64,000 nucleotides of DNA from Escherichia coli (GTDB lineage: Bacteria; Pseudomonadota; Gammaproteobacteria; Enterobacterales; Enterobacteriaceae). The notes beneath the pieces are model-generated. The model worked only from the letters and a program-made list of their open reading frames with translations. It did no database searches and was not told the DNA's origin. This document shows, piece by piece, positions 5,592-18,259 of this stretch (the first letter of the stretch is position 1; every line of letters begins with the position of its first letter). Position numbers and translations under genes: made by a program. The stretch lies in assembly GCF_044324785.1 (NCBI RefSeq), contig NZ_CP172127.1. One strand, written 5' to 3'.

Positions 5592-5936
5592 TTGAAGAAA
5601 AAAATACTTGCCTTCGGGCTTATCTCAGCATTGTTCTGCTCCACGCCAGCGATGGCGGATATGAATCGCACCACGAAAGGTGCATTGCTAGGCGCAGGCG
5701 TTGGTTTACTTACTGGCAATGGTGTTAATGGCGTACTGAAAGGTGCAGCTGTTGGCGCTGGTGTTGGTGCAGTAACAGAAAAAGGCCGCGACGGTAAAAA
5801 TGCGCGTAAAGGTGCAAAAGTGGGTGCCGCCGTTGGTGCTGTCACTGGCGTTCTGACCGGCAATGGCCTCGAAGGGGCGATTAAAGGTGCCGTGATTGGC
5901 GGTACGGGTGGTGCAATTCTGGGTAAAATGAAATAA
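5592..5936 (+). CDS. ymgG: Glycine-zipper protein YmgG, 114 aa, apparent TTG start
   Basis: [22 protein letters not shown] signal then G/A-rich repeats ([11 protein letters not shown]...). Confidence 0.8.
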
Positions 5937-5945
5937 GGAATGATG

Positions 5946-6275
5946 ATGAAAAAATTTGCTTTACTGGCGGGTCTGTTTGTTTTCGCACCAATGACCTGGG
6001 CGCAGGACTACAATATTAAAAACGGTTTGCCGTCAGAAACCTATATTACTTGCGCAGAAGCCAACGAAATGGCAAAAACTGACAGCGCACAGGTTGCAGA
6101 AATTGTTGCGGTAATGGGTAATGCCAGCGTTGCCAGCCGTGATTTAAAAATTGAGCAATCTCCGGAACTGAGCGCCAAAGTGGTAGAAAAACTGAATCAG
6201 GTTTGCGCTAAAGACCCGCAAATGCTGTTGATCACGGCAATTGATGACACCATGCGTGCTATCGGCAAAAAATAA
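5946..6275 (+). CDS. ymgD: Periplasmic protein YmgD, ~109 aa
   Basis: Track ORF 111 aa starting MMMKKF; third ATG matches the expected 109-aa length; signal peptide present. Confidence 0.8.
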   Translation: MKKFALLAGLFVFAPMTWAQDYNIKNGLPSETYITCAEANEMAKTDSAQVAEIVAVMGNASVASRDLKIEQSPELSAKVVEKLNQVCAKDPQMLLITAIDDTMRAIGKK

Positions 6276-6288
6276 TATTTAATATGTT

Positions 6289-6319
6289 ACCGCGTCGATG
6301 AATTCGACGCGGTATTTTA
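6289..6319. terminator. Hairpin between convergent ymgD and ycgH, candidate bidirectional terminator
   Basis: accgcgtcg / cgacgcggt 9-bp stem flanked by A/T-rich runs on both sides. Confidence 0.6.
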
Positions 6320-6330
6320 GCTAACGGGGA

Positions 6331-8979
6331 TCAGAACTTATATTTCAGGCCCACCATCACTGCGGTGTCATTGTAGCCATTATCACCCAGCTGCACGCCC
6401 ACATTACCCCAGACGCTGGCCGCCGGATTCAGATTGCCATTTACGCCAAGTTTAATTTCCCCCAGATTACGCGCCCCGTCTTGTTCAACTTTCACACCGT
6501 TCATTGAGACAGCAAAATCTTTACTGTTATGGATCCAGTTCATTTCAACAAAAGGTTCAAAGTCGTCACCGTGCGGACCGCTGTTTTTCTCCTGAGTACG
6601 AATAAAGGTGCGGAAGCCGAGTCGGGTCTGGATGTTGTTATTTGCGTCACTCTCAATACGTGAGCCATTGGCTTCCGTGTGCGCATTATGATCGACGCCC
6701 ATCCAGATAGCCTGTGCCTGTGGCTGGAAGATCCACGTATATTTCGCCGCTTCCAGACCAAAGGATTTATTCAGGGCAAAACCGTAACCCGCTTCCAGCG
6801 AGACGGTTGCACCTTTCGCGCTATAGGATTCATAGGCTAATTCATCTCCTTTCACCGAGTTTTTAAACCAGCTATATTGCGCCCAGGCGTCAATGTATGC
6901 GCCTTTTTTACTGATGTCATCGGCAAACCAGGTGGCATACAGCCCTGCGCTATAGCCTCTGACACTCCCTTTCGAACGATAATCCGACAAGCTGGAATGA
7001 GTTGAGTTGTAGTCGCGGGCATAACCAGCCATCACTCCCAAACGCCAACTGTCACTGTCGGTAAAACCACCGGTTAACAGATCCGCCCCTAACTGCGAGA
7101 CGTAGCGATGCGAGGTCGTTCTCAACTGTCCGTTGCTGTCACGCCAGGCATTATGCCCGCCAATTTGACGTAGCCAAAGTCGGCTTGAACGCTCCTGTTC
7201 AGTTACAGGATCGATGTAGCGCGTTTCACCTGCACGATCGTTCAGACGCATAACAAAAAGAGTGTTAGCGGCTGCCAGGTTGGCGACGTAACTTCCAGCT
7301 TCGGGGCGCAGAACGGGGGTAGGCGCAACAGTAGGCGCTGAACTTCCTCCGGAGTTTGTTTCACCGCCGCTCGTTGCCTGGAAGTTAGTCAGATACCAGT
7401 TTTTATTGGTCGCTTCGGTATTACCTCGGGTTAATGAATATTCGTAGGCACCGGCGAAAATCCTCGAATCCTTAATAAATTCCCCATTTGATTCCCCCTC
7501 AACGCTGATAATCTCTATCCCATTTAACGTGTAAGCCCCGCTGCCCCCAGCATTGGTAACTTTTACTCGGGTTGTTCCGGAGGTATTTCCATTAATAACA
7601 ACTTTATCAGTAGCTGAATTATCATCACCCAATTCAGTTCTGAGATGCAATACGCCATTATTACCAACGTAATTTTCAGTTATTGTTAACCTTGTTGGTT
7701 CGAAATCCTTTCCATCTGCCCGGGAAATATAGACCGTACTATTGTCAACCGTGAGCTTGCTCACCGTTGAGTCAGTTTTAATATCCCAGGTACTATTATC
7801 TGAAAGCGACAGATAGGTATGAGTGCTATCATCTGTTGAAAGATTGGCTGAACCCGTTATTTTTGAATTAGATGCATCGATGGCCAAATGACCTTTAATA
7901 TTATTAATAAAAACATCTGCAGCCGATGATACCTCACTATCCGTAATGGTCACGTTACTCGTCTCATTTTTATTGTATAGGATTTCATTTGCTGACCGTA
8001 GTGAGCTACCAGATAAAATATCTACCGTTGCTTCCTGACCATTTATGGAAGACTCCAGCACAACTCCAGCCCCCTGATGCGCGACTGCAAATGTATTTTT
8101 CAGCGTCACCGTGCCGCCATTATAAATTTTAGCAATCGCGGCGTCAGGACCCGTTGTATAAATTTCTCCCTGGTTAAATGAAACTGTCCCCTGGCGAGCA
8201 GCGATGGCATGAGCATTGTCCCCATGCGTGGTAATATCAACATCGGTTAATGTAACGCTGGCATTGGTATAATCAAGCTTGCTACCAGCCTTGACGACAG
8301 TGCCATTAGCGTAAGCGGCATAACTTTCTGTTCCGTGGGTTGTTATCTCCCCTTTTGCCATATCCAGTTTTGCTTTGGCGTTATTTTCATTACTTCCTGT
8401 ATCGGCAGTACTTTCTTCATCAAGAGAAGATACACACGCACGCGCGCTTCCGGGAGATGCACAAGCAAGAACGCCGACTGCGTGATTACCCGCAGTAACA
8501 ATAAAAGTATTACCTTCGTCAGATAAATGGGGGTTAACCGAACCGTCAGTGTTGACTCTTATTATGGTATCAGTATTCAGGTTTCCATTCGTTTGACTTA
8601 GCAAACCAATTGAGTAATCCCCCGTTGTGACAATCGTATTATTACCCTGCAAAATAACTGCACCGCCATATTCACTTACGACTGCGCTAGCTGTATATAC
8701 TGTGCTTAGAGGACTATTGCCAGAAGGATATAAACCACCCGTTGTTACAATGACGCCTTTGTTAATGGTTAAATTGCTACCCTCTCCTGCAACAGATACC
8801 CCGTAACTTCCATTACCCGTTGTTATAACTAGCGCATTATCAATATCTTTTACTTCTCCATCTTTTATTGCCACAGCATGTTTATATTCATCGTGCTGAA
8901 TAAACTGTTCAGCATATGCATTACCCACCGCCAAAGCAATAAGTCCTAAACTAAACCCGGGGAGTTTTTTCAGTTTCAT
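6331..8979 (-). CDS. ycgH: Autotransporter (type Va) adhesin-like protein, intact 882 aa (ycgH)
   Basis: Signal peptide MKLKKLPGFSLGLIALAVGNAYA, long G/T/S/N-rich passenger, C-terminal barrel ending ...VMVGLKYKF; position between ymgD and ymgF. Confidence 0.85.
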   Translation of the reverse strand: MKLKKLPGFSLGLIALAVGNAYAEQFIQHDEYKHAVAIKDGEVKDIDNALVITTGNGSYGVSVAGEGSNLTINKGVIVTTGGLYPSGNSPLSTVYTASAVVSEYGGAVILQGNNTIVTTGDYSIGLLSQTNGNLNTDTIIRVNTDGSVNPHLSDEGNTFIVTAGNHAVGVLACASPGSARACVSSLDEESTADTGSNENNAKAKLDMAKGEITTHGTESYAAYANGTVVKAGSKLDYTNASVTLTDVDITTHGDNAHAIAARQGTVSFNQGEIYTTGPDAAIAKIYNGGTVTLKNTFAVAHQGAGVVLESSINGQEATVDILSGSSLRSANEILYNKNETSNVTITDSEVSSAADVFINNIKGHLAIDASNSKITGSANLSTDDSTHTYLSLSDNSTWDIKTDSTVSKLTVDNSTVYISRADGKDFEPTRLTITENYVGNNGVLHLRTELGDDNSATDKVVINGNTSGTTRVKVTNAGGSGAYTLNGIEIISVEGESNGEFIKDSRIFAGAYEYSLTRGNTEATNKNWYLTNFQATSGGETNSGGSSAPTVAPTPVLRPEAGSYVANLAAANTLFVMRLNDRAGETRYIDPVTEQERSSRLWLRQIGGHNAWRDSNGQLRTTSHRYVSQLGADLLTGGFTDSDSWRLGVMAGYARDYNSTHSSLSDYRSKGSVRGYSAGLYATWFADDISKKGAYIDAWAQYSWFKNSVKGDELAYESYSAKGATVSLEAGYGFALNKSFGLEAAKYTWIFQPQAQAIWMGVDHNAHTEANGSRIESDANNNIQTRLGFRTFIRTQEKNSGPHGDDFEPFVEMNWIHNSKDFAVSMNGVKVEQDGARNLGEIKLGVNGNLNPAASVWGNVGVQLGDNGYNDTAVMVGLKYKF

Positions 8980-9378
8980 AGATTAACCATCCATTCATTG
9001 GATTAACAAACATTCCTGGTCAAATAACCTATGAGTTCAGATTACCAAAACGGAGGGTAAAGACAAAAACAAAAGCACAAAAAATTTAAATAGATAAACA
9101 GCGACAATATATAAATGATAAATAAGTCGGCATTATCATTTTTCACCTTATTTTCATGACATTGATCACTTTGAGGTGACGATTTTGTTTAACAAATAAC
9201 TCTTCGACATCAAAACTATTAATAGTTGCCATAGAAATTATTTCAATGATATATAAAAACAACTGTGATAACACCAGGGTTGACAACTATTTGCGCAATA
9301 ATTCCTTTCCTTCAATGATCCAGGCATTCACTGCCAGCAACCCATTCAGCCGCATACTGACAGTGAGAAACTGAAAGA

Positions 9379-9597
9379 TTAGTGCTGATCCCTGTGGCTG
9401 ACGAGTCTTTCCCTTAATCGATTAACCAGATTGATCGCCAGCCAAACAAGGGCATTAAGCAAATTTATCGTCACAAGCACTTCTCCCAGCCCGGTACTGG
9501 GTTTTGCAATAAGGATGACCAGGAGAGTGATCAGCATAAATGCAATGGAAAAGATGATATAGAGAGTGAAATAATCCAGATTATTACTATTGTTCAT
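9379..9597 (-). CDS. ymgF: Small inner-membrane division-associated protein YmgF, ~72 aa
   Basis: Track ORF 84 aa; internal Met (MNNSNNLDYFTLYIIFSIAFML...) gives the expected 72 aa; two hydrophobic helices. Confidence 0.65.
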   Translation of the reverse strand: MNNSNNLDYFTLYIIFSIAFMLITLLVILIAKPSTGLGEVLVTINLLNALVWLAINLVNRLRERLVSHRDQH

Positions 9598-9728
9598 GCT
9601 ACTAATGGCAATCCTGTCAAAACTTTCAAACAATTATAGCAAACAAAATAATGAACAATAGTAACAAGAGGCAACGAGCTAATTAGCTGTCTATAATTAC
9701 ACCGCACCATGGCCTTGCTGATCAATTT

Positions 9729-11252
9729 TCACTCAACCACAACCTTCACCTTCGGTTTAGAAAGGATAATTTTGACCAGGTCGATGTATGTAACAGGTTT
9801 ATAGAAATAATAACCCTGCTGAAATGTGATATTATTTTGGTTCAGATAATCAAGTTGTTCTTTCGTTTCGACACCTTCAGCGACGATACTGATCGAAAGT
9901 TTACGCGCCAGATCCAATACACAATCCAGAATTCGGGTTGATTCTGGGTCTGCGTTGACGCGGCCAACGAAACTGTGATCAATTTTGATATAATCAATAT
10001 GCAGGTCATGCAGATAAGAAAGCCCTGAGTAGCCAGTACCGAAATCATCCAGCGCGATGACAAAACCATTTTCATGCAGAATGTTCAACCGCTGAACCAG
10101 ACTTTCATCAACATTTAATGGCTCACGCTCGGTAACTTCCAGAACGAGGTTTAAATCGCGGCGGGTAAAACTGTCACGGTAATTTAAGCACTCGTCGACA
10201 AACGTCGGCGAAATAATATGCGAGGCGCTAAAATTAATTCCAATATGAAAACCCTCCGGCAGTTTACTCGAGATAGCGTTCATCTGTCTGGCAACCTGAT
10301 TCATCAGGCTTTGCGTAAGCGGAACGATTAATCCGGATTTTTCAGCAAGTGGAATAAATGCCGCGGGTGATATATATCCACCGTGAGGTTGTTTCCAGCG
10401 GGCTAACACCTCAACTCCCCGCAATGTCCCTTCCCGACCATTTACCACAGGTTGGTAAAAAGGGACGATCTCCCCATTATTTATTGCCCGTCGCAGGATC
10501 TCTTCAGGCGTTGCGCTTTTATTGAAATATCTATCAAGCAGGAAGGCAGCGGCGCAGGCGATTAACAGAATAAATATCAAAATCCCAAAGCCTTTATCGA
10601 TAAGTCTGTAGAAGCTAAAGAGTGGCGGCGGGTTAAAGATAATAGTGAAATGATATTTTGTGGAGTGAACCTTCTCGGTATAGGGATAATGTCCATTAAG
10701 AGTCATCACATCACCCGTAGGTCCAATAATGTCATCCGCCACGCGTAATACATACCTTACCCCTTTCAAGGGTACATTAAGCGCTCCGCGAATATGCTGA
10801 TCACTTATCGTAACCAAAATGCGCGTATCTGCAAATTGGCTCTGATAGAGCAGGATAGGTAATCTATTAACGGTGTCGATTGCCGGAGCCAACAGTAAAT
10901 TACTGTCCGGGAAAACAGGAATACGAGACAGCAGGACCCGATTCCCCGGTAAGGATGTACACCAGACCGCTCCCTGTTTGAGAATGATGATTGTGCGCAG
11001 GTGAGGTTTCAGAGCTGCTTCAGTGCCAAGCTGATATTGCTCCTCGAGGTCGCATTCCTTCCCGGCAATGTTAACCGCCGTTTGAGTCGCCTGTGACGCT
11101 TCTTCAAGTATATGATTGATATTGTTGGCGGCATATCTTGCTCCCGCCAGGTACTCTGCTTTTGCGGAATACCAGAGCTGGATGTTCAAAATAGCGACAC
11201 CGGTTATAAACAAGCATATCGCAATGAGGATGGGTATGAGTGTATTGCGCAT
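9729..11252 (-). CDS. pdeG: CSS-domain / EAL-domain c-di-GMP phosphodiesterase PdeG (YcgG), 507 aa
   Basis: N-terminal TM helix, periplasmic region with cysteines, second TM, C-terminal EAL-type domain (EVLARW, DDFGTGYS motifs). Confidence 0.85.
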   Translation of the reverse strand: MRNTLIPILIAICLFITGVAILNIQLWYSAKAEYLAGARYAANNINHILEEASQATQTAVNIAGKECDLEEQYQLGTEAALKPHLRTIIILKQGAVWCTSLPGNRVLLSRIPVFPDSNLLLAPAIDTVNRLPILLYQSQFADTRILVTISDQHIRGALNVPLKGVRYVLRVADDIIGPTGDVMTLNGHYPYTEKVHSTKYHFTIIFNPPPLFSFYRLIDKGFGILIFILLIACAAAFLLDRYFNKSATPEEILRRAINNGEIVPFYQPVVNGREGTLRGVEVLARWKQPHGGYISPAAFIPLAEKSGLIVPLTQSLMNQVARQMNAISSKLPEGFHIGINFSASHIISPTFVDECLNYRDSFTRRDLNLVLEVTEREPLNVDESLVQRLNILHENGFVIALDDFGTGYSGLSYLHDLHIDYIKIDHSFVGRVNADPESTRILDCVLDLARKLSISIVAEGVETKEQLDYLNQNNITFQQGYYFYKPVTYIDLVKIILSKPKVKVVVE

Positions 11253-11587
11253 TCACTTGTCCCGGCCAAAGGGTTTAATACATAAAAATGACATTCATTC
11301 GCTCGCGCTGGCGTCTACAGAGAGCATGGTAGAGAGCATCACAAATATCCACGCCGAAGATAAAATTTTCTCCATCTTCATCTAACCTATTAATTATTGA
11401 GCATAATGTAGGCAGAATTAAACAAATTAGGCGGGATATCAGGCGTCAAGAATGGAAAACGAGCGCTCTCCATTCTTGTTGGCTCCCTGATATTGCGGAT
11501 ATATTAAGAAAGCATAACGCCTGAAATGCTCACTTTGCACCAGCATGGTGATACATCTGATCTTTATTCTAAAGCCTTCCACAAGTT

Positions 11588-11836
11588 TTAAGAGAGCACG
11601 GATTCCCTGTCATTAATAATGATATCCGCTAGTGTAGTCTTATGCATTTCAATGTACTGCAAGATTTGCAGATAGAGATCAGAAAGAATCACACTGGTTT
11701 CATCTTTTAAACGCAAGCGTAAAGCCTGATCAATAATATGACTATCAACATATCCATGCGTCATGAACACCTCCCTCTCAAGATTTTTAAACAAAGCACA
11801 TTGAAAAATAAATCTCTCTGGGATTGAATTATTCAT
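11588..11836 (-). CDS. ymgC: YmgC, last gene of the ycgZ-ymgA-ariR-ymgC operon
   Basis: Track ORF 91 aa; internal Met MNNSIPERF... gives ~82 aa; synteny. Confidence 0.7.
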   Translation of the reverse strand: MNNSIPERFIFQCALFKNLEREVFMTHGYVDSHIIDQALRLRLKDETSVILSDLYLQILQYIEMHKTTLADIIINDRESVLS

Positions 11837-11948
11837 GTCAGCCTCGTAGGAATAGTGACCCAATAAAATTATGCTGTGTATAGTCTAAAGCGACAGACAA
11901 AAATAAGATGAATGAGTTTTCTAAAAACTTATACTTAACAATTAAAAG

Positions 11949-12215
11949 TTACATATCATCAGCTGTGTATCGCAACACGATTTCCAGTGTTTTTCTAATC
12001 ACATCAGCTTTAAGAATATCATTTGTTGTTTCCAGGGAGTGTATCAGACTTAAGATAATATTTTTATTATTAACATTATCGCCTGAAAGCATTAAATTGG
12101 TCACAGCCTGCCCTAACACAGCTGACTCTTCTTCTAACAAATTACCTGAACTACGAAAGTAACTTGATAACGCTTTATCAGTTATTGCATTATGAATAGT
12201 AGTATCTTCAAGCAT
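11949..12215 (-). CDS. ariR: Biofilm/acid-resistance connector AriR (YmgB), 88 aa
   Basis: 88 aa; third gene of the ycgZ operon. Confidence 0.8.
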
Positions 12216-12243
12216 GGTAACCTCTCATCTTACTTATGAAATT

Positions 12244-12516
12244 TTAATGTATTCTGTTTATTTTCTTACCATTGAACATACTTTTATTGTCAGCTATCGC
12301 TGTTCTTCTGTTTGGCCCTCCTGTATCACTGTTGCTAAAATCACGAATTATGCTGTCAATTAAATCTCGTCGGAAAGCATTTTCCTCAGCCGATTTCATT
12401 ACGAGTAATTGCTTAATAAGAGTCTGCAACGAAAAATTTATCTTCATGCGCAGTATATGGAGCACCGCCTGGCCAGTAATTTCATATTTTATACTTTCAT
12501 TATCAGATGTCTTCAT
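12244..12516 (-). CDS. ymgA: YmgA, 90 aa
   Basis: 90 aa; second gene of the ycgZ operon. Confidence 0.8.
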   Translation of the reverse strand: MKTSDNESIKYEITGQAVLHILRMKINFSLQTLIKQLLVMKSAEENAFRRDLIDSIIRDFSNSDTGGPNRRTAIADNKSMFNGKKINRIH

Positions 12517-12558
12517 AACGACTTCATAGCTAACCTGTTAAATACTCAGGCTGTTGCA

Positions 12559-12795
12559 TTATTCAAAAAGCAACCCAATTAGTGCATTATAATGTTTCTG
12601 TTCCTCTTCCCCTGTCGCTTGTTCCAGTCGGCAAAGAAGTTTGGCACAAAGCGACTTTCGACTCAGATTACGTCCATCTTTCAAAATCTCAGTCACAATT
12701 TCCCCGAGAGTTTCCTGCTGAGTAGGCAAGTTAGCTTTTGCAAAGTAACGAGTGATTGCTCCCGCAGAATCTGAAGTCACTGAATTTTGATGCAT
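12559..12795 (-). CDS. ycgZ: YcgZ, 78 aa
   Basis: 78 aa; divergent from bluF. Confidence 0.8.
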   Translation of the reverse strand: MHQNSVTSDSAGAITRYFAKANLPTQQETLGEIVTEILKDGRNLSRKSLCAKLLCRLEQATGEEEQKHYNALIGLLFE

Positions 12796-12850
12796 GCTAC
12801 GCCTCTGTTAAAAATGTTAATCAATGTTAAGTGAGGTAACAATAGCAAAC

Positions 12851-12870
12851 TTGTACGAAATATGTGTACA
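12851..12870. promoter_or_regulatory. TGTAC-containing inverted half-sites in the ycgZ-bluF intergenic region, candidate BluR operator
   Basis: ttgtacgaaatatgtgtaca; resembles the TGTACA half-sites of the MlrA/BluR family. Confidence 0.4.
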
Positions 12871-13108
12871 GAATGATAAATTAATTTTTTGCAATTAGTG
12901 CTAATGCATATAAAACAATGCCTTATGATATAAAATATTGCATCATTTAAATGACAACCTATACAATGTTTTTCGCCAAATCGTCTTCAACTTTTTCCAC
13001 TTTTTATCAATGTAAAGAAACGGTTATGTTTTGGTATTAAAAGAAAGACACAAGAAGATATGTCTGTTACCGTCTTACTCTCGCCTCGCCCATTACCCTG
13101 GATTGTTA

Positions 13109-14320
13109 ATGCTTACCACCCTTATTTATCGTAGCCATATACGTGACGACGAACCTGTCAAAAAAATCGAAGAAATGGTTTCGATAGCAAATCGCAGGAA
13201 CATGCAGTCTGATGTAACAGGGATCTTACTGTTTAATGGTTCTCATTTTTTCCAGCTTCTGGAAGGTCCGGAAGAACAGGTTCAACTGATATTTCGGGCT
13301 ATATGTCAGGATCCACGGCACTATAATATTGTTGAACTGTTGTGCGATTACGCGCCTGCTCGCCGTTTTGGCAAAGCAGGAATGGAATTATTTGATTTAC
13401 GCCTGCACGAGCGAGATGACGTTTTACAGGCCGTATTCGACAAGGGTACATCAAAATTTCAGCTAACTTATGATGACAGAGCGCTACAATTTTTTCGTAC
13501 TTTTGTCCTTGCAACCGAACAATCAACCTATTTCGAGATCCCTGCTGAAGACTCCTGGCTTTTTATCGCTGACGGATCTGATAAAGAACTTGATTCCTGC
13601 ACCCTTTCACCAAATATAAACGACCACTTTGCCTTTCATCCTATTGTCGATCCCTTATCGCGGCGGATAATCGCTTTTGAAGCCATTGTGCAAAAAAATG
13701 AAGACAGCCCGTCAGCTATAGCGGTTGGGCAGCGTAAAGAAGGGGAAATCTACACAGCGGATCTCAAAAGTAAGGCGCTTGCATTCGCGATGGCACACAC
13801 ACTTGACCTCGGTGACAAAATGATTTCAATCAATCTATTACCTATGACCCTGGTTAACGAGCCTGATGCAGTCTCTTTTTTACTTGATGAAATAAAGGCC
13901 AATGGCCTGGTGCCGGAACAAATCATCGTTGAATTTACCGAAAGTGAAGTCATATCTCGGTTTGATGAGTTTGCCGAAGCGGTTAAATCGTTAAAGGCTG
14001 CCGGTATCAGTGTAGCAATTGATCATTTTGGCGCAGGTTTTGCCGGTTTGTTACTCCTGTCACGCTTCCAGCCTGACAGAATTAAAATCAGTCAGGAATT
14101 GATTACCAACGTTCATAAAAGCGGGCCACGGCAGGCAATTATTCAGGCGATCATAAAATGCTGTACATCACTTGAAATTCAAGTCTCTGCTATGGGTGTG
14201 ACAACACCAGAAGAGTGGATGTGGCTTGAATCTGCAGGAATTGAGATGTTTCAGGGAGATCTGTTTGCGAAAGCTAAATTGAATGGTATCCCTTCAGTTG
14301 CGTGGCCGGAGAAAAAATAA
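13109..14320 (+). CDS. bluF: Blue-light sensing BLUF/EAL protein BluF (YcgF), 403 aa
   Basis: Track ORF extended to 13031; ATG at 13109 gives MLTTLIYRSHIRDDEPV..., BLUF domain then degenerate EAL domain. Confidence 0.9.
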   Translation: MLTTLIYRSHIRDDEPVKKIEEMVSIANRRNMQSDVTGILLFNGSHFFQLLEGPEEQVQLIFRAICQDPRHYNIVELLCDYAPARRFGKAGMELFDLRLHERDDVLQAVFDKGTSKFQLTYDDRALQFFRTFVLATEQSTYFEIPAEDSWLFIADGSDKELDSCTLSPNINDHFAFHPIVDPLSRRIIAFEAIVQKNEDSPSAIAVGQRKEGEIYTADLKSKALAFAMAHTLDLGDKMISINLLPMTLVNEPDAVSFLLDEIKANGLVPEQIIVEFTESEVISRFDEFAEAVKSLKAAGISVAIDHFGAGFAGLLLLSRFQPDRIKISQELITNVHKSGPRQAIIQAIIKCCTSLEIQVSAMGVTTPEEWMWLESAGIEMFQGDLFAKAKLNGIPSVAWPEKK

Positions 14321-14440
14321 TTTTCAGCACATTATTTCGCATGATTTCTGGAAATCATCGTGAAAATGAATACGTTATGTTTTAATTTAATCCACATTAA
14401 AAATAATGTTTCATCCAATTTAGCTGAAATCTTATTTATA

Positions 14441-14491
14441 CTTTGTACAATTTTAGCGTATATTGTACAAAGTATTATTGGGTCGTGTACA
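14441..14491. promoter_or_regulatory. Three TGTACA palindromes upstream of bluR, candidate MerR-family (BluR) operator
   Basis: ctTTGTACAAttttagcgtatatTGTACAAAgtattattgggtcgTGTACAgg; the first two copies form a perfect 10-bp inverted repeat. Confidence 0.5.
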
Positions 14492-14524
14492 GGCGACGGA
14501 GATTTATGACCGCAAGGAGGAATT

Positions 14525-15256
14525 GTGGCTTATTACAGCATTGGTGATGTTGCTGAACGTTGCGGGATTAATCCTGTCACTCTCCGGGCCTGGCAACGCC
14601 GCTACGGTTTGTTAAAACCACAGCGCAGTGAAGGCGGACACCGACTCTTTGATGAAGAAGACATACAACGCATCGAAGAGATCAAGCGTTGGATAAGTAA
14701 TGGCGTCCCTGTAGGCAAAGTTAAAGCATTACTGGAAACCACCAGCCAGGATACGGAAGATGACTGGAGCCGCCTGCAAGAAGAGATGATGTCAATTCTT
14801 CGTATGGCTAATCCTGCCAAACTACGCGCGAGAATTATTTCACTGGGTCGAGAGTACCCGGTAGATCAATTGATTAATCATGTTTACCTTCCTGTTCGTC
14901 AGCGTCTCGTGCTTGATCACAACACCTCCCGCATTATGAGCAGTATGTTTGACGGCGCATTAATTGAATACGCAGCAGCCTCACTTTTCGAAATGCGCCG
15001 TAAGCCCGGTAAAGAAGCCATTCTGATGGCGTGGAATGTTGAAGAGAGAGCACGATTGTGGCTGGAAGCATGGCGTTTATCATTGTCAGGATGGCACATT
15101 TCTGTTCTTGCTGATCCCATTGAATCGCCGCGCCCGGAACTGTTCCCAACGCAAACATTGATTGTCTGGACAGGCATGGCACCAACGAGAAGGCAAAACG
15201 AACTTTTACAACACTGGGGTGAGCAAGGTTATAAAGTCATCTTTCATGCCCCCTAA
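14525..15256 (+). CDS. bluR: MerR-family repressor BluR (YcgE), 243 aa
   Basis: N-terminal MerR HTH ([27 protein letters not shown]). Confidence 0.9.
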
Positions 15257-15476
15257 TTTTACCTTTATCCCGCCCCTTAGACAGAATCTTATAATCTGAA
15301 CCCACAACAGCGTTTGTACCGGAGCTGGTCCGTTGCAAAATGCTCACCGGGAGAATTCAGGTAATCCCCCTTTCACACTTTGTACATATCACAGCCAAAG
15401 GACAGACCAGATTGAAGTGGTAAAACCGATCGTGCACACTACGCAGTCTCACAACTAACAAGAGGTTATTATCCTG

Positions 15477-15881
15477 ATGGATCAGGTTGTTGTTTTTCAA
15501 AAGATGTTTGAGCAAGTGAGAAAAGAGCAAAACTTCTCCTGGTTTTATTCAGAATTAAAACATCACCGTATTGCACATTACATTTATTACCTGGCTACGG
15601 ATAACATCAGAATTATTACTCACGATGACACGGTTTTGTTATTAAGAGGAACCAGGAACCTGTTAAAAGTTAGTACGACCAAGAACCCTGCTAAAATAAA
15701 AGAGGCCGCATTGCTTCATATTTGCGGAAAATCAACATTTCGGGAATACTGTTCAACACTGGCAGGCGCGGGCGTTTTCCGGTGGGTTACTGATGTTAAT
15801 CATAACAAACGCAGTTACTACGCCATTGATAATACGCTTTTATATATTGAAGATGTAGAAAACAATAAACCATTAATCTAG
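15477..15881 (+). CDS. ycgX: Uncharacterised protein YcgX, 134 aa
   Basis: 134 aa; position between bluR and iraM. Confidence 0.75.
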   Translation: MDQVVVFQKMFEQVRKEQNFSWFYSELKHHRIAHYIYYLATDNIRIITHDDTVLLLRGTRNLLKVSTTKNPAKIKEAALLHICGKSTFREYCSTLAGAGVFRWVTDVNHNKRSYYAIDNTLLYIEDVENNKPLI

Positions 15882-17008: not shown

Positions 17009-18259
17009 TTACATGTTCTTGATGATCGCATCACCAAACTCGCTGCATTTCAGCAGCTTAGCACCTTCCATCAGACGTTCGAAGTCATAGGTTACGGTCT
17101 TCGCATTGATTGCGCCTTCCATACCTTTAACAATCAGGTCTGCAGCTTCAGTCCAGCCCATATGGCGTAACATCATCTCAGCGGAGAGAATAATAGAGCC
17201 TGGGTTTACTTTGTCCTGACCGGCATATTTCGGCGCAGTACCGTGGGTGGCTTCAAACAGGGCGCATTCGTCACCGATGTTTGCGCCAGGGGCGATACCG
17301 ATACCGCCAACCTGCGCTGCCAGGGCGTCAGAAATGTAGTCACCGTTCAGGTTCATACAGGCGATAACATCATATTCAGCCGGACGCAGCAGGATCTGTT
17401 GCAGGAATGCATCAGCAATCACGTCTTTAATGACGATCTCTTTGCCGGTGTTCGGGTTTTTAACTTTCAGCCACGGGCCGCCGTCGATCAGTTCACCGCC
17501 AAACTCTTCACGCGCCAGCTGGTAGCCCCAGTCTTTAAACGCGCCTTCGGTGAACTTCATGATGTTGCCTTTGTGCACCAGGGTCACAGAGTCACGATCG
17601 TTAGCAATTGCGTATTCGATCGCTGCACGAACCAGACGTTTGGTGCCTTCTTCCGAACACGGCTTAATACCGATACCGCAATGTTCCGGGAAGCGAATTT
17701 TCTTCACGCCCATCTCTTCACGCAGGAATTTAATCACTTTCTCGGCGTCGGCAGAGTCAGCTTTCCATTCGATACCCGCATAAATGTCTTCCGAGTTTTC
17801 ACGGAAGATAACCATATCGGTCAGTTCAGGGTGTTTAACCGGGCTTGGAGTGCCCTGATAGTAACGTACCGGACGCAGGCAGATGTAGAGATCCAGTTCC
17901 TGACGCAGGGCAACGTTCAGAGAGCGAATACCGCCACCTACTGGAGTGGTCAGCGGACCTTTAATGGCAACGCGATATTCACGAATCAGATCAAGGGTTT
18001 CAGCAGGCAGCCAGACATCCTGACCATAAACCTGTGTGGATTTTTCACCGGTGTAAATTTCCATCCAGGAGATTTTACGCTCGCCTTTATAGGCTTTCTC
18101 GACTGCAGCGTCGACCACTTTCAGCATGGCTGGGGTTACATCTACACCGATTCCATCACCTTCAATGTAAGGGATAATCGGATTTTCAGGAACGTTGAGT
18201 TTGCCGTTTTGCAGGGTGATCTTCTTGCCTTGTGCCGGAACAACTACTTTACTTTCCAT
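17009..18259 (-). CDS. icd: Isocitrate dehydrogenase (NADP)
   Basis: 416 aa, [38 protein letters not shown]... Confidence 0.98.

Follow-up and report, generated by a model that had tools for sequence, protein, structure and literature searches.

The pair of TGTAC half-sites at positions 12852-12870, in the divergent intergenic region between ycgZ and bluF, is almost certainly the operator of BluR (YcgE), a repressor of the MerR family, in the sigma-S-dependent promoter of the operon ycgZ-ymgA-ariR-ymgC, and the model worked out for Escherichia coli K-12 applies to it. The site is already known. The TGTAC pair that had been flagged in the ycgZ promoter by a reading of the sequence alone is the published BluR binding site and adds nothing to the literature; it represents an independent rediscovery of the BluR operator, by which blue light and cold are connected to the Ymg/Rcs biofilm switch. 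The window (the whole stretch of 64 kb that was analysed) is E. coli chromosome. A 1.1-kb query around the site matched 4961 of 5426 complete genomes, with 99.9% identity to strain N3 and about 98% identity to most other matching genomes.

Open reading frames and RefSeq annotation were used to define the gene layout (Table 1), and both leave positions 12796-13108 as non-coding DNA. The arrangement given in the sequence-only reading, with ycgZ-ymgA-ariR-ymgC divergent from bluF and bluR downstream, is correct. The A+T-rich context that it described is likewise present, with 68% A+T in the ycgZ/bluF gap vs 51% in the whole window. The genes bluR, bluF and ycgZ are intact and adjacent, so that the cognate repressor and anti-repressor genes lie next to the operator. 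YcgZ scored above its NCBIfam cut-off, and BluR matched the NCBIfam MlrA model (MerR protein, MlrA-like) below the cut-off, as expected of a paralogue. A scan of positions 11500-15500 against Rfam gave no match with E below 0.2 and none that came close to a gathering score. Short open reading frames within the gap comprise 23-29 aa, and support was found for none of them.

Table 1. Features of the ycgZ/bluF/bluR region (window coordinates).
Feature	Position	Strand	Basis
pdeG	9729-11252	minus	ORF and RefSeq annotation
ymgC		minus	ORF and RefSeq annotation
ariR	11949-12215	minus	ORF and RefSeq annotation
ymgA	12244-12516	minus	ORF and RefSeq annotation
ycgZ	12559-12795	minus	ORF and RefSeq annotation
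ycgZ start codon ATG	A at 12795	minus	gap boundary
ycgZ transcription start (+1, an A; uncertainty about 1 nt)	12832	minus	mutagenic-primer numbering
ycgZ -10 hexamer TATTGT, preceded by C (gCTATTGT, sigma-S type)	12839-12844	minus	primer numbering
BluR operator, 19-bp palindrome TGTAC-N9-GTACA	12852-12870	minus	sequence, published footprint and mutagenesis, K-12 identity, conservation
Promoter-proximal half-site cGTACAa, GTACA = -24 to -20, inside the 18-bp spacer	12851-12857	minus	G-24A/C-21A primers
ycgZ -35 hexamer TACACA	12863-12868	minus	inferred from +1, -10 and stated 18-bp spacer
Promoter-distal hexamer TGTACA, -38 to -33, overlapping -35	12865-12870	minus	C-39A/T-38G/G-37A primers
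Inverted repeat TTTGCA-N5-TGCTAA (TTTGCA-attag-TGCTAA), centre near -64 of ycgZ	12888-12904		partly conserved
Third hexamer TATACA, one mismatch to TGTACA	12960-12965		cross-species alignment
Predicted bluF sigma-70 promoter: -35 AAGACA (13045-13050), 17-bp spacer, -10 TACCGT (13068-13073)	13045-13073	plus	hexamers inferred
bluF start codon ATG	13109	plus	gap boundary
bluF	13109-14320	plus	ORF and RefSeq annotation
Hexamer pair TTGTACAA-N12-TTGTACAA, hexamer starts 20 bp apart	14444-14469	plus	sequence; cross-species conservation
Third TGTACA in bluR leader, about +16 to +21, 22 bp downstream of the pair	14486-14491	plus	sequence
bluR	14525-15256	plus	ORF and RefSeq annotation
ycgX	15477-15881	plus	ORF and RefSeq annotation

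The flagged string ttgtacgaaatatgtgtaca was located exactly at 12851-12870 and reads cTGTACAcatatttcGTACAAg on the ycgZ strand; the operator itself (12870-12852 on that strand) is TGTACAcatatttcGTACA and occupies positions -38 to -20. In the published work, tag-free BluR was footprinted by DNase I on the ycgZ promoter (Tschowri, Lindenberg, Hengge 2012, PMC3509220), and the footprint covered a direct repeat GTACA...GTACA overlapping a palindrome TGTAC...GTACA across the -35 hexamer and the spacer. Both the direct repeat and the overlapping palindrome are present in the window site. Point mutations in both half-sites abolished BluR binding and led to derepression of ycgZ::lacZ to the extent seen in a bluR knockout; BluR binding and mutational derepression of ycgZ were published for K-12 derivatives only (PMC3509220). 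The mutagenic primers are given in supplement Table S1 of that paper, those for the distal half-site (C-39A/T-38G(/G-37A)) as ATCATT[AG]GTACACATATTTC and those for the proximal half-site (G-24A/C-21A) as a change of GTAC to ATAA. Except for the intended changes, the primers match the wild-type sequence of the window. The mutated bases correspond to 12871 (C-39), 12870 (T-38), 12869 (G-37), 12856 (G-24) and 12853 (C-21). The last four lie inside the two half-sites, and C-39 is the base adjoining the distal half-site. The identification of the TGTAC pair as the exact BluR operator thus fits both the footprint and the mutated bases. A comparison with the published footprint had been proposed; since that footprint coincides with the TGTAC half-sites, the contrary outcome, a footprint elsewhere in the gap with no TGTAC half-sites, was not found.

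The ycgZ transcript was reported to start 36 nt upstream of the start codon from a sigma-S-dependent promoter with an 18-bp spacer (PMC3509220). From the mutagenic-primer numbering together with the stated spacer, the start and both promoter hexamers were therefore placed as given in Table 1. This start leaves 36 intervening nt to the ycgZ ATG, in agreement with the publication, and the operator overlaps the -35 hexamer and the spacer of the sigma-S promoter. A consensus promoter scan missed this promoter. Its only match, a sigma-70-like sequence at 12811-12784, was rejected as a chance match that overlaps the ycgZ start codon.

Alignment with MG1655 showed no difference between the window and K-12 from 12836 to 12919, and the operator is identical. 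The single difference within 100 bases around the operator, G/A at 12835 (-3 of ycgZ), lies outside it. For this strain it was thus shown that the operator is unchanged and stands at the published position. Within E. coli, the 79 bp that hold promoter and operator had at least 95% identity in 4881 of 4898 matching records. The 79 bp of the mid-gap (12915-12993) reached at least 99% identity in no strain but N3; among the other 1593 matching records the identity was 80-95%, and the remaining E. coli genomes gave no megablast match to this segment. The mid-gap segment of this strain is a rare allele, and the adjoining operator region is nearly invariant in about 4900 genomes. Beyond iraM, an intact icd of 416 aa (17009-18259) was observed; the strain therefore is without the e14 prophage, which interrupts icd in K-12. 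It is also without the Avs2 and phage-tail genes that are present there in strain N3, its closest match for the ycgZ/bluF region.

The exact palindrome TGTAC-N9-GTACA occurs once in the 64-kb window, at the operator. In dinucleotide shuffles its mean number was 0.02, and 2 of 100 shuffles contained a match. When up to one mismatch was allowed, 4 matches were found vs 1.15 expected, which by itself is a weak enrichment; the real support for the site is its conservation and the published experiments, not the one-mismatch enrichment. The hexamer TGTACA is present 12 times in the window, 5 of them within roughly 740 bp of non-coding DNA around ycgZ, bluF, bluR and ycgX.

For comparison across genera, species-representative genomes were scanned with a BluR alignment, resulting in 80 loci. 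The full ycgZ/bluF/bluR arrangement is kept in 27 of these, each from another species, and includes Citrobacter, Pseudocitrobacter, Kluyvera, Enterobacter, Lelliottia, Cedecea, Klebsiella oxytoca, Pluralibacter, Phytobacter, Kosakonia and Buttiauxella. Between the two GTAC cores of the ycgZ promoter, the distance is 13 bp in 18 of the 27 other species (19 of 28 sequences with the window) and 14 bp in 3, and one half is degenerate in 6. An exact distal GTAC core 13-14 bp from the proximal core was found in 21 of the 27, or in 22 if Pluralibacter gergoviae, with GTGC as proximal core, is counted. A TGTATAACTT-like -10 follows downstream of the core pair in all 28 sequences, always at the same distance, and other genera carry TGTATAACTT aligned with the ycgZ -10. 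The proximal site is a full TGTACA in most other species and CGTACA in E. coli. The operator consensus across the 28 sequences is ttTGTACA.tTTttaTGTACAa; written as ttTGTACA-N7-TGTACAa, this cross-genus consensus may be of modest use for workers on the pathway. The sequence flanking the operator has diverged freely among these species. In the 27-species loci, TGTACA was counted 132 times in the 13.5 kb of the two regulatory regions vs 60 times in the other 322 kb, i.e. 9.8 vs 0.19 per kb, a 52-fold difference, for which the p-value exaggerates the independence of these related species. Judged from these alignments, the operator is a deep phylogenetic footprint. The bluF of Enterobacter cloacae (L032, 4592-5801) and of Cedecea neteri (L042, 4681-5858) was recovered as two tblastn segments with an early in-frame stop, and may be frameshifted or interrupted in both.

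According to the K-12 model, a BluR dimer would bind the two TGTAC/GTACA half-sites from -38 to -20, a stretch that takes in the -35 hexamer and the upstream part of the 18-bp spacer, and would thereby keep sigma-S RNA polymerase off the ycgZ promoter. At low temperature and under blue light, the BLUF-EAL protein BluF, which is encoded across the same intergenic region from the operon, would bind BluR and pull it off the DNA. With BluR removed, the operon ycgZ-ymgA-ariR-ymgC would be expressed. The footprint, the point mutations that abolish binding and cause derepression, and the way BluF acts were shown in K-12 (PMC3509220; Duval et al. 2017), and the literature for K-12 thereby upholds the earlier statement that BluR represses ycgZ and that BluF relieves this repression. 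For this strain, we infer the same BluR/BluF events as in K-12.

How BluR reads the site admits a second interpretation, in which two tandem TGTACA hexamers 13 bp apart are recognised (as a direct repeat or as hexamer units) in place of one 19-bp inverted repeat; by extension, the third hexamer of the gap and the pair at bluR would be bound in the same way, possibly cooperatively. This interpretation is rather unlikely. The direct GTACA...GTACA repeat and the palindrome were both noted in the footprinting study, and pairs at 18-20 bp spacing occur at bluR and at csgD, the latter site being weakly bound by BluR (PMC3509220). Tandem recognition is also consistent with the cross-genus alignment, where the 13-bp core distance prevails (19 of 28) and both sites are full TGTACA in most species, and with isolated conserved hexamers about 95 bp away. 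Because both half-sites are full TGTACA palindromes in most species, the inverted- and direct-repeat readings are not separable by sequence. MerR-family regulators, however, bind as dimers to dyads of about 18-20 bp, and TGTAC-N9-GTACA fits this usual size. Moreover, the proximal site of E. coli is CGTACA, so a full hexamer is not required.

A role of the paralogue MlrA at the site, as an additional or even the main regulator, would make ycgZ subject to cross-regulation by the curli activator. The helix-turn-helix motifs of MlrA and BluR differ at only four residues and GTACA is contained in the sites of both (PMC3509220), and the MlrA box of csgD was confirmed here as TTGTACA-N12-TGCACAA. The spacing at ycgZ, however, is 13 bp and not 18 bp, a bluR knockout alone fully derepresses ycgZ, with operator mutations matching that phenotype (PMC3509220), and no report of MlrA acting at ycgZ was found in the literature searched. 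Regulation by MlrA through this site is improbable. The idea that the TGTAC pair arose by chance in intergenic DNA rich in A+T, with the true operator elsewhere, can appeal to the A+T content of the region (68%) and to the promoter scan that did not pick up the real promoter, but has next to no probability, given that the published footprint and mutagenesis concern exactly these bases (PMC3509220), that an exact match is expected 0.02 times in the window, and that the site, unlike its diverging flanks, is conserved across genera.

The operator was also compared with the region upstream of bluR, as had been suggested in the sequence-only reading for deriving a shared motif. Such a motif exists: the hexamer TGTACA (extended form TTGTACAA) is common to both regions, and the spacing differs. 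The bluR transcript starts 54 nt upstream of the GTG (PMC3509220); the pair in the bluR promoter extends from about -27 to -2 of this mapped start and flanks a -10 TATATT (14459-14464). Citrobacter and other genera do not keep the additional TGTACA of the bluR leader. Between bluR and ycgX, a further TGTACA (cTTTGTACAtat) was observed at 15381-15386, which is 96 nt upstream of the start of ycgX. A pair equivalent to that of the bluR promoter was found upstream of bluR in 27 of 29 loci; either both of its hexamers are exact or one of them has a single mismatch. Where both are exact, a spacing of 19 bp is the most frequent, and the distal hexamer begins 73-88 nt upstream of the start codon; in the Enterobacter cloacae group the bluR pair has the ycgZ-like spacing of 13 bp. 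TGTACA arrangements thus comprise 13 bp at ycgZ, 19-20 bp at the promoter of the regulator bluR itself, and 18 bp at csgD (K-12). The bluR-promoter pair is a candidate autoregulatory site or MlrA-type site. Neither autoregulation by BluR/YcgE nor its binding at bluR was reported in the literature searched, which did not cover Tschowri et al. 2009, and no BluR ChIP-exo, SELEX or DAP-seq data were found there. In Pseudescherichia vulneris and Escherichia sp. ESNIH1 (loci L013 and L016, about 5936-6000), the bluF-bluR gap measures 53 nt and is without a TGTACA pair; in these two, bluR may share a transcript with bluF. A gSELEX peak of SrsR (YgfI) was reported at bluR (K-12, about 1,213,450), with gCAGgTTTTGC as SrsR box (PMC9181523); SrsR is a second, unrelated input to bluR expression.

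Pairs of this kind (consensus aagtTGTACAataAaAaaaa..TTGTACAa) were also found upstream of all 15 mlrA-like genes, mostly from Erwiniaceae, whose products are at least 54% identical to BluR and which have no bluF nearby, and upstream of mlrA-like genes of the Yersiniaceae genera Rouxiella, Rahnella and Yersinia. Upstream of all 31 Enterobacteriaceae mlrA genes examined, the pair is absent. In four Pantoea/Mixta loci (L012, L014, L019 and L065, around 6001-10600), the single mlrA-like gene of these Erwiniaceae adjoins homologues of the genes flanking E. coli mlrA, which we take to be the yehWXYZ transporter genes. Due to these shared flanking genes, the four are therefore positional orthologues of E. 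coli mlrA. Their products have 63-67% identity to BluR and 52-56% to E. coli MlrA. These data suggest that the ancestral promoter was retained by bluR rather than by mlrA, and that mlrA of the Enterobacteriaceae is the faster-evolving copy. It is tentatively proposed, with somewhat more doubt than confidence, that TGTACA could be the hexamer recognised in common by the entire MlrA/BluR clade, and that the locus might hold more operators than the one published. If so, the bluR-promoter pair would be an autoregulatory or MlrA-bound site, the third hexamer near ycgZ would be an auxiliary site, and bluR would have kept an ancestral self-controlled promoter together with the more ancestral protein sequence. 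The comparative data predict that bluR is self-controlled or cross-controlled by MlrA, which could matter modestly for the pathway.

Several other elements were recorded in the ycgZ/bluF gap. Measured from start to start, the third hexamer and the distal operator hexamer are 95 bp (about nine helical turns) apart. The third hexamer is situated upstream of both transcription starts, by about 130 bp for ycgZ and about 115 bp for bluF. Most other species have an aligned GTACA at this position, usually separated by 92-99 bp from the nearest hexamer of the operator, and CTATACAA is kept in K-12 and the window despite polymorphic surroundings. As an MlrA-type activation site it was rejected, because it is a single hexamer or has a second one at an irregular spacing of 9-42 bp. 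The inverted repeat at 12888-12904 reads TTAGCACTAATTGCAAA on the ycgZ strand. Its best form, TTAGCA-N5-TGCTAA, which occurs in several genera, was matched with 0-1 mismatch in 6 and with up to 2 mismatches in 8 of the 28 sequences (window included). The core TAGCACTTTT was seen by eye in about a dozen of the 28, and the element is absent from the Enterobacter cloacae group in this alignment. The consensus of the MarA/SoxS/Rob marbox is AYnGCACnnWnnRYYAAAY. A relationship was considered, as the conserved TAGCACTTTTTGCTAAA element resembles a marbox and would be a good match in some genera; no link between ycgZ and MarA is given by Duval 2017.

For bluF, a transcription start 30 nt upstream of the ATG was published (PMC3509220). 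The predicted sigma-70 promoter has TG at 13065-13066 and a start near 13078-13079, and its block TCTGnTAnnGT is conserved in the cross-species alignment. The ycgZ 5' leader (12813-12830) contains two copies of the motif AATGTTAA at a distance of 10 bp, and two 19-mers, ATATAAAACAATGCCTTAT and ATATAAAATATTGCATCAT, are found 20 bp apart at 12908-12946 in the polymorphic mid-gap. Besides these two pairs, the internal repeat search gave only one weak inverted repeat.

Compared with the ycgZ BluR operator of K-12 (PMC3509220), the window has the same sequence at the same position relative to the start site and the ATG, and the same neighbours. There is no difference in the operator; the window differs by the substitution at 12835 and the rare mid-gap allele. 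The csgD MlrA box (Ogasawara et al. 2010; AAAGTTGTACA-N12-TGCACAATTTT) resembles the ycgZ site in its TGTACA-type arms with T/A extensions; it belongs to a paralogous regulator and is bound weakly by BluR in vitro (PMC3509220). The hexamers of the csgD box are 18 bp apart, with a gap of 12 nt, whereas the hexamer starts at ycgZ are 13 bp apart; compared with a csgD-type MlrA box, the ycgZ site thus has the TGTACA-type arms but not the 12-nt gap. The csgD 5' leader presumably comprises about 148 nt, which would place the csgD box about 130 bp upstream of the start, where it acts in activation. The ycgZ site, in contrast, overlaps the -35 hexamer and the spacer and represses.

With canonical MerR-type operators (merT/MerR, copA/CueR, soxS/SoxR), the ycgZ site shares a palindrome of about 19 bp for a MerR-family dimer, located in a promoter with a spacer of more than 17 bp. 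The canonical dyad is centred in a spacer of 19-20 bp, whereas the ycgZ dyad is centred at 12861 (-29) and covers the -35; with an 18-bp spacer and a dyad over the -35 hexamer, the site departs from the geometry of MerR activators. Unlike these activators, BluR only represses and does so without an activating ligand (PMC3509220). A further parallel is the CarA/CarH-CarS system of Myxococcus xanthus, in which light leads to removal of a MerR-like repressor from its operator by an acidic anti-repressor; the analogy was drawn in PMC3509220. The anti-repressor folds are unrelated, SH3-like in CarS and BLUF-EAL in BluF, and the operator sequences differ.
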